The position numbers were made by a program, and so were the translations under genes. Under the pieces are notes generated by a model. The model was not told the origin of the DNA, made no database searches, and was given only the letters and a program-made list of their open reading frames with translations. A stretch of 64,000 nucleotides of DNA, taken from positions 1 through 64,000 of IMG/VR virus record IMGVR_UViG_3300020045_010841, one strand, 5' to 3'. This DNA is from a virus. This document shows positions 7,069-28,831 of the stretch, piece after piece; the first letter of the stretch is position 1, and every line of letters begins with the position of its first letter.

Positions 7069-7931
7069 TATTTAATATTTACATCTTTATTATATACTAA
7101 TAAATAATGAGTTCTTCCATCATCTATTAATTCTGCAGAATTTCCTAAATATTTTATAGCTTCATCGAAATCATCATTATCCGCATCTTCTATAGAAAAA
7201 TTGTTTTCATCATCACCCCAATAACCATATAGTCTTTTTCCATCTTTTAATGGAATATAAGGTTGTTCCCCATCAATATAAACTACAGGTTTATTAGGAT
7301 TATTTACTTTTATTTCATTTAGTACACCAACAATTTGTTTTACTATTTTATTTCTATCTTCCTTTACTACTGTACGTGAAAATTTATTACGTAATGTTTT
7401 TAAATCTCTTATTAATGAATTTAATTTAGGACGGGAATGGAAATCTTTAAGATGAATTGCTTCAAATTTATTTAATAATTTAGTTAAATCATCCCATATT
7501 TCTTTATCGGATATTTCTTTTTTAATATTCCAAGTTACTGATTGAGTAGTCGGGTCAACATCTGTAACAGTTGATTTATGTCCTCCTGCTTGGGTGGTTT
7601 GACCTACTTTAAATTTAGAAACGTCTTCTTGCAATCCTTTTAGTATATGGTCTTTAGTTTCTTCTACTTGGGATTTATCTCCTGAATATAACCATTCTAA
7701 AGCATCGTCTAAGTCTTGTATTGTATCGGTATTTTCGACTTTATCTAAATAATTATTAAAGTCTTCAATTTCATTTTCTCCTATATTTTCTCTATAGTTT
7801 TCAAACTCTTCCTCAACACCTAATCTTAATTCGTAAAATTCTTCCATACTTAATCCCTTAGTAAGAGGATTATTTACTTTAACTTCAGTAATTATTCCAG
7901 CTAATTGCTGTAATCTTTTTATTTCTTCCAT
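7068..7931 (-). CDS. Putative internal head polyprotein: RLQQLAGI leader plus two KVNNP modules
   Basis: Starts [22 protein letters not shown]; second tag LNEIKVNNP at ~7297-7316. Confidence 0.75.
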   Translation of the reverse strand: MEEIKRLQQLAGIITEVKVNNPLTKGLSMEEFYELRLGVEEEFENYRENIGENEIEDFNNYLDKVENTDTIQDLDDALEWLYSGDKSQVEETKDHILKGLQEDVSKFKVGQTTQAGGHKSTVTDVDPTTQSVTWNIKKEISDKEIWDDLTKLLNKFEAIHLKDFHSRPKLNSLIRDLKTLRNKFSRTVVKEDRNKIVKQIVGVLNEIKVNNPNKPVVYIDGEQPYIPLKDGKRLYGYWGDDENNFSIEDADNDDFDEAIKYLGNSAELIDDGRTHYLLVYNKDVNIK

Positions 7932-8428
7932 TATATTCTTTCTTCTTTAAGTCCTAGTTTCTCAGCGCGTGTATAATGCGCAGAACAAATGATACTAAGC
8001 GATGCTCCCGTATCTTCAACACCATCACCAACTTTATAAGCATAGTCTTTATCTCGCCCTGTTATTAATTGATTTTCATCAACGTTATCTATTTCAAAAT
8101 ATTCTTCATTCCATAACATTATATCACCTATCATAGGTACAACACCTGCCTGTTCGAGGTGTAATTTTAAAAAACGAACTGTAAGGGGACGTTGCCTATC
8201 TTGACCTTCATCTCCATCTGTTGTATTATATGAACCTCTTTCAATAAGACAATTTATAAGTACTGGTCCTATAAATGTTTTATTTAAACTTTCACCATAT
8301 ATATTGGTTGGAGAGTTTTGAATGTCGGCTGAGTAATAACCCACTTTTTGTTCAATAACTTGACCTAAAAGTTCTTTATTTATATTGTAGAAAAAATCTA
8401 CGTCGCGAGATCTTCCAAAAAAGCTCAT
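7931..8428 (-). CDS. Head closure / neck protein, T4 gp14-like
   Basis: NIYGES, P-x-IGDI-x-x-W-x-x-x-YFEI motifs; synteny with the adaptor and tail terminator. Confidence 0.7.
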
Positions 8429-9114
8429 AATACATCAATTTTAAATTTCCATATAAACCCACCACATTTTTTCCCTTTATTATTACATACACCATTAATT
8501 CCAGCTTGTTGTAAATTTAATTTTCTGGAAGCTTCTTTCCCACTAGGCCATTCTTTTATAAAATTGTTATTTAAATCATATTGTATAACAGATTTGTTTT
8601 TAGCCTTAACAACTGCTTCTATATGGCAACTTCTAGGTACTCCTTTATTTTTATAGGTTTTATTTACTATATGAGGGCTCCCTTTCCTAGATTTAGACAT
8701 ACTTTCTTTATGTTTATCAGAAAATAACATCCCTTTTCTTCCCTCACTTATATTAATTTTAGTTTGATCAGATTGGGGTACGCCCTTTTTAGTATTACTA
8801 ATTTTTAATTTGGTTTCTTCAGACCTTTTTCCAGATTGAGAATTTGTTTTTGTTAAAACACAATTCAATCCTTCCTCTAATACATTATAATAATCCTGCC
8901 AATAGCGTTCTCTTATATTTAGTTGTGTTATATCACATTCTTCTATTACTTCAAAAAAATGATTTTTAACACCATATTTAATAAATGAATTGTATAATCT
9001 ATTTTTATTTTTCCCTAAAACCAGTCTATGTTCTTTCCATCTATTCTCTATATTAATAGATTGACCTATATAAATACGATTTAAGGGAGAGGTAATTTTA
9101 TAAATTCCTATCAT
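8425..9114 (-). CDS. Free-standing GIY-YIG homing endonuclease with NUMOD3-like repeats and a C-terminal NUMOD1/IENR1-like domain
   Basis: [25 protein letters not shown] / SDQTKINIS / SDKHKESMS repeats; VIQYDL..FIKEWPS..EASR...GGFIWKF. Confidence 0.9.
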
Positions 9115-9130
9115 ATTATATTATATTATA

Positions 9131-26516: not shown

Positions 26517-26535
26517 ATTTATTTAAATTATTAAT

Positions 26536-26590
26536 CGAATATACGAAATTCCATTCTAGAATCAAAATGAGTCTCAAATTGAGACTCAAA
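26536..26590 (-). promoter_or_regulatory. Terminator hairpin plus TTTG...CGTATATTCG promoter-like element
   Basis: TGAGTCTC-AATTT-GAGACTCA hairpin (26568-26588) followed by TTTTGATTCTAGAATGGAATTTCGTATATTCG; resembles the Bacteroidota -33 TTTG / -7 TAnnTTTG layout. Confidence 0.6.
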
Positions 26591-26593
26591 TTA

Positions 26594-28831
26594 TTATCTT
26601 ATTCCTGCTCTATTTTGCAGTCGTTCACGCATGAATTGTTCTTTGAATGTTTCTTTTACTTCATTAATTAATTTCACATCTTCCTTTCGAACGACCAAAT
26701 GTCTACTTCTTAAACCCATTTCTACTTTAGCATGATTTCCAAAATACTTAACAATTTCTTCAAAATTTTTTCCATCATCATAGAAACTAAAATCGTATGT
26801 TATATTATCATCTCCGAAATAGGCATTAATTTTATCTCCATTCTTTAATATAATATAAGGCAATATTTCATCATTATATACTATTGGTTTTGTAGGATTA
26901 TTTACTTTTACTTCTTTTATTTCTTTTTTCGGCGGTGCTAACTCACTTATATCAAATATTCTTCTTGGATCATTATCTATATTTGGATAACCTAATTGTA
27001 ATGGTTGATCACCAACATTATATTTATCTCCTGCTATATCTTTTTTAACTACTTTATTATTTTCATCTACAAGTACCCATTTATCATAACTATATTCATC
27101 ATTTGTTAATGGTAGAAGAATTAATTTACGTCCATTATCGTTTATAATATAAGGCAATGCATATAATAAGGTGCTATATTTTTCGTTCCCATCTACTTGT
27201 TCAGCCAAATGAATAATCACTTTTCTATCTTCAGGAGATAAAGTATTCCATTGTTTAGCTGTCATTGGTTTTGGAGTAACATCTTGAACTGGCATATCAG
27301 CCATATTTTCTAATTGTTCATCATCTAAACCAAAGTTTTTACCAAATTCCCAACTATCAAATAATTTACTATAAACAGAAAATAATGCTTTTAATTTAGG
27401 ATCTTTAATATATTTTGCTGCGTCTGCGGGCAAATAATCGAAATTTTTTATTTGATCTTGTACGTATTTTTCTGTAGCTTGTGGACCAAAATACTTATCA
27501 ATATATTCATAATTTAAATTATCATCAAAAGTAGCTAAATATTTTTGTTTAGCTTCTTCATCTAAATATTTTACATAAGGAAGTGGTATAGGTTCTTTTT
27601 CATAATTAGTATGTCTGAAACGGAATACCGCATATCTTTTAGCCAATCCTTCATTGTCTTTTAAATCTGCGTACGGGAATTTTTGACCATAATTTATGGC
27701 TAAGTTTTTTAATTCTTTGTCTAATATTTTTAATATTTCAGGTGATAAAGAACCTGCATTAGCTTGAACGTAATTTTGTTTATCTTCATAATCTAATTCA
27801 CGGAAATCATTTGCAGATAATCTTTTACCACGCATAGCAGCACCAGATATTTCTGCTTTAGAAGGAGCAACAAATTTAAATACGTCTTTTAATCCACCTA
27901 TTCTACTCCACACGGATGGAGCTATTTTAGCTAATTCTTCCCACTTTTTAAAATTTTTATCACCACTATTCTTTGCATCTGTAATCCAATATTGATTACC
28001 TCCTTCACCAACATGAATTACGAAGGCGTGGTAAGGATCAGATTCAGGTAAATTGCGATCAAACACGAAATAGAACATACGGTTAGTACCTTCCATAAAA
28101 CGATATCTATCATACATCGTATTAGAAGGTTGTGCAATACACCAACCATATTTTTTACGACCACCTTCTGTTGGGTTATAAGATATACATTTATGTTGTG
28201 CATCACCTTTATATATTTCTATACCATCTTTATCATATACTTTATCTGCATCTGTAGTAGCGGTATTTTGTTCTTCATCGCCAACTTTAGCTTGCATAGG
28301 AAATAAAGCATCCAACATGTGTTCCATTTGACCAAAATCCCAAGTGCGTGGGTCAAGATATGCGTCGTTCGGAATCAATCTTTTGGGTACTAATTTTTGT
28401 ACTTCTTGAGCACTATAATGTCCGTCTTCTGTACCATTAGATAAAGCATATTTAATATTACGTCTATTATTCATAAAACGAATAACGTAAGATGTTACAT
28501 CCCCTTTATCCATACGTTCTTTTTCAACGAACATTTGGATGGCATCTTTTTTTATCTTATCTTCCTTTTCAGGCAAGGAACGAAGTAAAGTAACCATGTC
28601 ATTCCAAGAATATTTATCTATATTAAGATAATTATTACCTTGTTTTAATTCATCAGATAATGCTATTTGTTGTAGTTTAGAGGATAAACCTGATTTAATT
28701 TGGTCAAAACGTTGTATTACTTGTCTTGCAAGATTGTCGTCGATAGAGGGAGTTAATTTCTTCCATCTATCAATTGTAGTTTGAATAGTCTTGTCACTAT
28801 ATTCTAAAATTAGTATGTCTGTTAATTTCAT
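26594..28831 (-). CDS. Large putative internal head protein with a PcfJ-like WC domain, a KVNNP module and a C-terminal RLQNRAGI
   Basis: KYGWCIA..NTMYDRY..FYFVFD segment; IKEVKVNNP at ~26895-26914. Confidence 0.65.
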   Translation of the reverse strand: MKLTDILILEYSDKTIQTTIDRWKKLTPSIDDNLARQVIQRFDQIKSGLSSKLQQIALSDELKQGNNYLNIDKYSWNDMVTLLRSLPEKEDKIKKDAIQMFVEKERMDKGDVTSYVIRFMNNRRNIKYALSNGTEDGHYSAQEVQKLVPKRLIPNDAYLDPRTWDFGQMEHMLDALFPMQAKVGDEEQNTATTDADKVYDKDGIEIYKGDAQHKCISYNPTEGGRKKYGWCIAQPSNTMYDRYRFMEGTNRMFYFVFDRNLPESDPYHAFVIHVGEGGNQYWITDAKNSGDKNFKKWEELAKIAPSVWSRIGGLKDVFKFVAPSKAEISGAAMRGKRLSANDFRELDYEDKQNYVQANAGSLSPEILKILDKELKNLAINYGQKFPYADLKDNEGLAKRYAVFRFRHTNYEKEPIPLPYVKYLDEEAKQKYLATFDDNLNYEYIDKYFGPQATEKYVQDQIKNFDYLPADAAKYIKDPKLKALFSVYSKLFDSWEFGKNFGLDDEQLENMADMPVQDVTPKPMTAKQWNTLSPEDRKVIIHLAEQVDGNEKYSTLLYALPYIINDNGRKLILLPLTNDEYSYDKWVLVDENNKVVKKDIAGDKYNVGDQPLQLGYPNIDNDPRRIFDISELAPPKKEIKEVKVNNPTKPIVYNDEILPYIILKNGDKINAYFGDDNITYDFSFYDDGKNFEEIVKYFGNHAKVEMGLRSRHLVVRKEDVKLINEVKETFKEQFMRERLQNRAGIR

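Follow-up and report, generated by a model that had tools for sequence, protein, structure and literature searches.

A scaffold-tail-like leader peptide as a candidate address tag for the prohead of a distant T4-type phage

What brings the same sixteen residues to the start of several otherwise unrelated phage proteins, and why do these residues look like the end of the phage's scaffold? The question is raised by the first half (64 kb; hereafter, the window) of the virus record IMGVR_UViG_3300020045_010841 (132,388 bp, 29% G+C), in which three genes on the minus strand begin with M(N/E)EIKRLQQLAGII(T/A)E-VK(V/I)N(N/K)P and then diverge. The phage is a T4-type myovirus and a distant relative of T4, as judged from its predicted Gp23 capsid protein, gp21-type S77 prohead protease, and gp20 portal. 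An earlier note on this DNA proposed that the common start is a cleavable capsid-targeting peptide taken from the scaffold. In our reading, the 16-residue N-terminal peptide probably acts as an address tag that brings unrelated small proteins into the prohead during assembly and can then be removed. It is best read as a copy of the scaffold tail and a variant of the capsid targeting sequence (CTS) of T4. That it was taken from the scaffold, as the note had it, is an inference.

The leader and the tail of the scaffold

The leader starts were confirmed in the open reading frames (ORFs) 7068-7931, 9131-9415, and 20907-21227, all on the minus strand, and include MNEIKRLQQLAGIIAEVKINNP; the last of these genes is located between those for the terminase and the portal. 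The leaders end in IITE or IIAE, and the genome encodes a protease of the matching family. The scaffold ORF (13041-14057) ends in FVARMQKLAGIKN, with ARMQKLAGIKN as its final letters, and its last 16 residues (13044-13091) directly follow ILTE, a predicted protease site: ILTE↓NVDFVARMQKLAGIKN, where the arrow, here and below, marks the predicted cut. A shortened leader opens the minus-strand ORF 17822-18094, which starts MDQVKRMQLIAEIKINNP, and the 745-residue protein encoded at 26594-28831 ends in RLQNRAGIR. The sequences quoted in the earlier note are all found where it placed them.

The recurrence of the leader is not a product of chance, given that its pattern is absent from shuffled DNA and given the ranking of the ORFs by a profile built from the leaders only. 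A degenerate DNA pattern for KRLQQLAGI matches the window three times, against no match in 100 shuffles, and in the whole genome the peptide pattern [KR][LM]Q.[LIR]AGI is found five times: in the three N-terminal leaders, at the C-terminus of the scaffold, and at the C-terminus of the 745-residue protein. When the leaders-only profile was run over the 333 ORFs of the genome, the three leaders ranked first by construction, and the best match outside the training sequences was the scaffold tail (rank 4, E 5.6e-4), followed by the short form in 17822-18094 (rank 5, E 0.007), with E values of at least 0.059 for all the remaining ORFs. LYKIAGI, within the mini-ORF 44086-44235, had been offered as a further example of the motif, and it was rejected, being neither terminal nor significant by this profile (E 0.39); the notable feature of that ORF is instead its MKVNNP start.

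At the nucleotide (nt) level, the leaders had been described as near-identical over about 65 nt. They do share DNA, but near-identity did not hold, since any two of them agree at 56-57 of 66 nt (85-86%); the differences fall mostly at third positions, and the flanking and upstream DNA is unrelated. Synonymous differences within unrelated flanks indicate that what is repeated is a peptide, with selection acting at the protein level. Among 25 leader proteins, Q8, A11, G12, and E16 are invariant.

Neither the leader proteins nor the scaffold have a family in Pfam or PHROGs. The scaffold is thus named by position and composition, as a putative counterpart of gp22; the ORF resembles the gp22 type in its gene order, its acidic and repetitive product, and its N-terminal IAE site, where ..FNDAIAE↓AKAI is similar to MLKEQLIAE↓AQKI from gp22 of RB6.

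The scaffold tail is found well beyond this genome. We fetched 80 IMG/VR loci as relatives via the capsid protein (55-86% identity). An ORF ending just ahead of the capsid gene is present in 79 of them; it terminates in R(W/M)QxLAGI(K/I)(K) in 77, and the tails of the other two are variants. The nearest named phage, Flavobacterium phage immuto (54% capsid protein identity), has the tail ..SRWQKLAGIIK, and variant tails are present in Microcystis phage Mel-JY01 (..ERMKKLAGIVK) and Rhodothermus phage RM378 (..ERIKRLAGL), which are farther relatives than immuto, and in LR756508 (..SRMQKLADIS). A site of the form [ILVM]x[ED] lies 12-20 residues from the end in 74 of the 79 scaffold tails, mostly as P-I-x-E at 15-16, and it takes the form IxE in 58.

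In these loci (L001-L081), every one of the 17 motif matches that are not C-terminal lies 5-13 residues after the start Met, and none is internal. Together with the 77 tails and the rank of the scaffold tail among non-training matches, this bears out the idea of a portable terminal peptide that copies the end of the scaffold. In immuto, for instance, a leader gene is found at 4774-5238 of L001, and a leader reads MKKQILSEQFRRMQKLAGIITE↓SQF. The exact pattern K(R)MQQLAGII is present in 41 IMG/VR stretches, and the peptide is N-terminal in all 47 matches. On a larger scale, a 32-position leader profile matched 950 cluster representatives (50% identity clusters) at E <= 1e-3 among 1.84 billion proteins, and we inspected 142 new proteins among the best 150 of these 950. 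In this sample, the core lies within the first 21 residues in 133 of the 142 proteins; a Glu is found 1-3 residues past AG(I/L) in 131 of these 133 leaders, of which 130 have I or L at P3. Sites of the form (I/L)xE, ending in Glu, are of the kind cut by T4-type prohead proteases, and the phage encodes such a protease (31% identical to RB6 gp21 across an alignment of 209 positions), in agreement with the proposed arrangement of a leader followed by a cut site. The cargos are diverse, as the 114 with at least 40 residues form 92 BLAST clusters, and they are acidic (D+E 18.8%, K+R 12.0%). A capsid gene is present on one of four leader-bearing contigs, a count that tells us nothing, as all of them are fragments that are 37-67% complete.

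The leader genes of the window stand at junctions of the head/neck operon: one follows the adaptor-like gene 9415-10584, another follows 7931-8428, and the third separates the portal gene from that for the terminase. In L005, a close relative, the first two of these places are likewise occupied by leader genes; one carries an unrelated cargo, with an alignment limited to the leader, while the other shares the first module and differs in the last ones. Another relative, L010, lacks both genes. The suggestion that such genes occupy variable junctions of the operon is therefore sustained by their presence and absence in relatives; in this they behave like the internal-protein genes of T-even phages, whose loci are variable.

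The same motif may also serve as a C-terminal trailer. The RLQNRAGIR ending of the 745-residue protein, which had been read in this way, is not significant by the leaders-only profile (E 1.2), but its sole orthologues (L088/L089, one sequence on two contigs) end in RERLMHRAGLL; the retention of this ending even though the module ahead of it differs lends the trailer some support. In a further relative, L056, the tail motif also closes a second ORF (..EINRLQKLAGLK), which lies upstream of the scaffold and stops at around 8700, and from this case it appears that a trailer can be usable by more than one head protein.

Junctions, polyproteins, and neighboring genes

The residues that follow the leaders, E↓(V/I)K(V/I)N(N/K)P, had been taken for a tag between the cut site and the cargo. 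The junction is certainly there, and it is more widespread than had been noticed, not being confined to the ends of leaders. The pattern [VI][KR][VI]NxP has 24 in-frame copies on the coding strand, all between 7.3 and 42.7 kb. The genome's other half has none in its real ORFs, and in shuffled proteins the mean is 0.28 sites, with a maximum of 3. A Glu precedes all 24 junctions (p 2e-28), P3 is L or I in 20 of them (p 6e-12), and the junction codons vary synonymously at nearly every position. The junctions divide ten proteins into about 35 pieces, mostly of 67-110 residues, few of which are alike. They are limited to the closest relatives (L002-L008 and L088/L089); in more distant leaders, the cargo comes directly after ..xE, with no junction. 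Among the 133 leaders inspected, 51 continue into the broader form [VIL][KRTV][VIL][NQ]xP.

One example is the 640-residue protein encoded next to the short-leader gene (Table 1). Its conserved head of about 80 residues is common to a 73-residue immuto protein, and its homologues keep this head; 11 of them have the motif, with 1-6 junctions each. An AlphaFold2 model from an 11-row alignment was too poor to use (mean predicted local distance difference test score 41.5); in that model, all six junctions lie in coil that separates predicted elements, an observation that we do not count as evidence. Separately, the head after its Glu site (..LMKE↓MSTSGGAGGYLTKAAF) is similar to the capsid protein's predicted mature N-terminus (..VLE↓SNTTNQGGATFTAGSGEQ), and the counterpart of the head in L010 (5816-6682; ..QE↓MSVTGTGATFTPGTGEQ) shows the same resemblance. 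The 967-residue protein and its immuto counterpart have just two domains in common, in a different order, so that junction positions cannot be compared between them. Judging from its HEMVH metallopeptidase-like motif, this protein could supply a peptidase of its own as an alternative cutter of the junctions.

In addition to the three mini-ORFs in Table 1 that start with MKVNNP, two more are found at genome positions 110977-111171 and 129433-129552. These five stand-alone ORFs encode 40-64 residues; four start with ATG-AAA-GTA-AAT-AAT-CCN and the fifth with GTG, and one of the five is a called gene in a public collection. No homologues were found for them among the related loci and proteins that we collected, nor for the 53-residue one at near lengths in a collection of 5.8 billion proteins. 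Their starts mean that the hexapeptide also arises directly from translation, as a primary N-terminus. It could act as a cap with a function of its own; alternatively, junctions between modules could turn into gene starts and back, as ATA to ATG takes one change.

Two other types of short leader were observed in these genomes. A second family (MKKSELRQIVKEAILE, MKKSRLKDIIKEVLSE, MNKSELRIFIRENIVRLLEE, and MKVSQFKQLIKEAVRE), each member of which ends in hydrophobic-x-Glu, begins the minus-strand genes 30781-31026, 34447-34689, 37390-38484, and 60481-60981, and perhaps also 31023-31952; it looks nearer to the T-even CTS. A third type, located 16-19 residues past a stop codon, is found in L002 (~14760-14830, ..RDAKNRLLSE↓IKINNP) and L003 (~5950-6020, ..RDSKNFLLSE↓IKINTP).

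Almost all genes of the window are on the minus strand, and the features discussed here are collected in Table 1. In Pfam and PHROGs, the polyproteins have no family other than the cytidylyltransferase domain and DUF5661 of the 967-residue protein, and the genes 31023-31952, 22851-23498, and 31953-33251 match unnamed PHROG families only. A GIY-YIG/NUMOD homing-endonuclease gene (8425-9114) is inserted between two head/neck genes and is not at that place in L005. The terminase ORF of L005 (236-3016) encodes 926 residues, against 536 in the window, pointing to an inserted element, for instance an intein, or to a gene fusion.

Table 1. Positions in the window of the leaders, junction-bearing proteins, and head genes (aa, amino acids)
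Feature	Position	Strand	Basis or remarks
16-residue leader of the 287-aa protein 7068-7931	7884-7931	-	then VKVNNP 7866-7883; second junction 7296-7313
16-residue leader MNEIKRLQQLAGIITE of the 94-aa protein 9131-9415	9368-9415	-	then VKVNKP 9350-9367
Adaptor-like gene	9415-10584		PHROG connector family
Major capsid protein, T4 gp23 type; candidate docking partner	11398-13026	-	Pfam Gp23, E 2e-71
Scaffold, 338 aa, acidic; gp22 position between protease and capsid genes	13041-14057	-	position and composition
Prohead protease, T4 gp21 type	14248-14862	-	Pfam Peptidase_S77, E 2.9e-32
Prohead-core polyprotein, 640 aa; conserved ~80-aa head and six modules, each after xE↓[VI][KR][VI]NxP	15907-17829	-	gp67/gp68 position
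90-aa protein, gp67/gp68 position; shortened leader MDQVKRMQLIAE, then IKINNP	17822-18094	-	profile E 0.007
Portal, gp20	18961-20889		Pfam Portal_T4, E 7e-67
16-residue leader MNEIKRLQQLAGIIAE of the 106-aa protein 20907-21227	21180-21227	-	then VKINNP 21162-21179
Large terminase	21241-22851		Pfam T4-type terminase N-terminal domain, E 2e-10
745-aa protein, one junction (26894-26911), trailer ..LINE↓VKETFKEQFMRERLQNRAGIR	26594-28831	-	motif at 26600-26623; weak by profile
649-aa multi-module protein, four junctions	28831-30780	-	junction scan
309-aa protein, one junction	31023-31952	-	junction scan
398-aa protein, two junctions	33251-34447	-	junction scan
Mini-ORF starting MKVNNP, 53 aa	39643-39804	-	start overlaps stop of upstream gene
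967-aa multi-module protein, five junctions	40352-43255	-	cytidylyltransferase-like (NMN adenylyltransferase-like) domain, DUF5661, C-terminal HEMVH motif
Mini-ORF starting MKVNNP, 47 aa	43956-44099	-	stand-alone
Mini-ORF starting MKVNNP, 49 aa	44086-44235	-	stand-alone

Precedents for the leader

In T4, gp21 cuts C-terminal to Glu, as it does in Alt at ITE-6 and LTE-619 (PMC5694885), degrades the scaffold core, and trims short N-terminal peptides off internal proteins (PMC9958956). The internal proteins of T-even phages are diverse, the only part common to them being the CTS, which places them in the core (PMC3012670). The leader is similar to the T-even CTS (in IPI, IPII, IPIII, and Alt, from which gp21 removes it) in being a short N-terminal peptide on unrelated, fast-changing proteins, in its hydrophobic-x-Glu end suited to a protease of the gp21 family, and in the location of its genes in variable loci. 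RB6 leaders, for example, end in ITE (MKTYQEFITE in Ip4; ..ITE in ipI and Ip5). Nevertheless, inspection of these RB6 leaders revealed no motif common to MKTYQEFI(A/T)E and MNEIKRLQQLAGIITE, and the leader copies the scaffold's C-terminal tail, whereas any resemblance of the T-even tag is to the scaffold N-terminus. Also unlike the T-even CTS, the tag described here is found as a C-terminal trailer and within polyproteins, and its cargos are mostly acidic.

The reuse of a scaffold end has precedents as well. In P22, a coat-binding helix-turn-helix is located in the C-terminal domain of the scaffold (PMC9962691), and in phage 80alpha, the last 16 residues of the scaffold, a helix followed by an RIIK hook, bind the N-arm of the capsid protein and are copied by CpmB of SaPI1 (PMC5644958). 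As in our case, a terminal scaffold peptide of about 16 residues is reused there by a second protein for the same procapsid site, and by impression, the RIIK hook and the ending AGI(I)K are alike. The differences are that CpmB is a competing satellite scaffold rather than a cargo, that its copy is C-terminal, and that the phage family and the protease are not the same. Engineered P22 loading, like the leader as we read it, uses a short terminal peptide or coat-binding domain to direct arbitrary cargo inward, without proteolytic release, and it is man-made. Encapsulin cargo-loading peptides also send cargo inside an HK97-fold shell by means of a short terminal peptide; they too lack proteolytic release, and encapsulins are not viruses. 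Finally, many head proteins of the giant phages phiKZ and SPN3US lose propeptides after Glu to a gp21-related protease, with several cuts per propeptide (PMC10052503, PMC5694885), but the motif there reads AxE or SxE, most of the propeptides are long (111-254 residues), and a portable leader common to them is not described.

Our literature search found no paper on the core or junction peptides and, among the papers listed, none on a scaffold-tail leader. The principle is known, from the CTS and from scaffold-tail mimicry; what seems not to have been described is the leader family itself, along with its size, its tie to the scaffold tail, and the polyprotein junction.

Weighing the explanations

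If the leader is an address tag, its core, (R/Q)(L/M/F)Q(Q/K)(L/I)AG(I/L), would imitate the scaffold end R(W/M)QxLAGI(K/I), and a tagged protein would take the docking site of the scaffold tail inside the prohead; the likeliest place for this site is the gp23-type capsid protein, on its inner face, with the scaffold core as the second choice. Once activated, the gp21-type protease would cut the tag at its (I/L)xE site, behind the Glu of AG(I/L)-x-x-E, and the same protease would cut the scaffold at P-I-x-E, about 15 residues from its end, freeing both the cargo and the scaffold body from their anchor peptides; the sites are seen in the sequence, and their cleavage is what T4 would lead one to expect. 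The freed cargo, mostly small acidic proteins, could stay in the head and be ejected with the DNA, or it could be degraded and leave like the core proteins of T4. In this phage and its closest relatives, the extension of the cut site to E↓(V/I)K(V/I)N(N/K)P would string modules into polyproteins, allowing one anchor to carry several cargos that are then cut apart inside the head.

Several observations weigh against this interpretation. The tail motif is not found in the scaffolds of RB6 (T4-like), cyanophage S-ShM2, or Melnitz, and experiments on T4 therefore do not transfer directly. The hydrophobic moment of the leader (0.45) is equaled or exceeded by 12.6% of shuffles and that of the scaffold tail (0.16) is below the shuffle mean; a claim that the peptide is an amphipathic helix was dropped, as none of the leader, tail, trailer, and short form stands out against its shuffles. 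Nor is the tag strictly terminal, given that there are 21 internal copies of the core among the best 150 profile matches, although some of these may be fused gene calls; in one, ..VINE↓IKRLQYLAGINE↓ITINKP, two Glu sites bracket the core. Leaders of different phages are more alike than each is to its own scaffold tail, the scaffolds often having RWQ where leaders have R(L/M/F)Q, and what looks like a copy of the scaffold tail may thus reflect an old convergence on one site and not a recent borrowing. Furthermore, stand-alone genes with no leader also start with MKVNNP, and the predicted maturation sites of the capsid protein (LLE↓S and VLE↓S) do without VKVNNP, which means that the extended junction is not needed for cleavage and that its conservation is unexplained.

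The closest alternative keeps the targeting to the prohead and changes the partner, so that leader and tail would pack against the scaffold core, the protease, or the portal instead of the capsid protein. Reviews of T4 state that the CTS encapsidates proteins into the scaffolding core (PMC3012670), and the leaders of RB6 internal proteins (MKTYQEFITE, MKTFKEF..ITE) resemble the N-terminus of RB6 gp22 (MLKEQLIAE), from which it follows that a tag imitating a scaffold end may work by co-assembly with the scaffold. Against this, scaffold C-termini bind coat protein where the contact has been solved or mapped, as in 80alpha (PMC5644958) and P22 (PMC9962691). The present sequence data do not separate the two partners; by analogy, 80alpha, with P22 pointing the same way, would favor the capsid protein, whereas the T4 literature speaks of the core, and we regard a partner other than the capsid protein as unlikely, though worth keeping in mind. 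A tag whose partner has nothing to do with the capsid (a chaperone, say, or a host protein or phage regulator) and is merely used by the scaffold as well is considerably less probable, in view of the prohead-protease-type site after the tag in nearly all leaders inspected (131 of 133), the use of the tag as the scaffold's own end in 77 of 79 relatives, and the location of all five genome copies in or beside the head module.

One could also imagine that the repeats are elements of DNA, serving as recombination or insertion sites, promoters, or translation signals, with the peptide as a by-product. A junction of about 21 nt in 24 copies could provide short homology for the shuffling of modules, and a single base change turns I or V into M, with MKVNNP beginning real-looking genes. 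However, the codons vary synonymously in the 24 junctions and in the three leaders, the flanking DNA is unrelated, and the peptide is kept in phages whose capsid proteins are just 55-66% identical. We rejected this explanation on account of the synonymous variation and consider it highly improbable.

An address tag could, in turn, be part of something larger. Tentatively, and with considerably more doubt than for the tag itself, we suggest that "far-T4" aquatic phages may possess a plug-in system for capsid delivery, in which a scaffold-tail anchor, a protease junction, and an N-terminal cap exposed by cleavage as a second signal would ship hundreds of unrelated small acidic effectors into hosts. 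The cap, hydrophobic-K-hydrophobic-N-N-P, would signal that the cargo is to be kept in the head, ejected, or put to work in the host, and a cap acting as a signal of its own would explain why MKVNNP is encoded directly on stand-alone mini-genes. If this is true, the 950 clusters would represent a fast-evolving arsenal of effectors shipped into host cells.

To our knowledge, the way in which the CTS of T4 finds the prohead has never been settled structurally. A tag that can be recognized as the scaffold's own tail leads to a concrete hypothesis, namely that one docking site is common to scaffold and cargo. As the profile reaches 950 clusters, and as the three leader proteins match no Pfam or PHROG family, the leader marks a large number of proteins from marine and freshwater phages that are probably carried in the virion. 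In addition, the leader, its cut site, and the junction may together form a natural unit for loading proteins into T4-type capsids.

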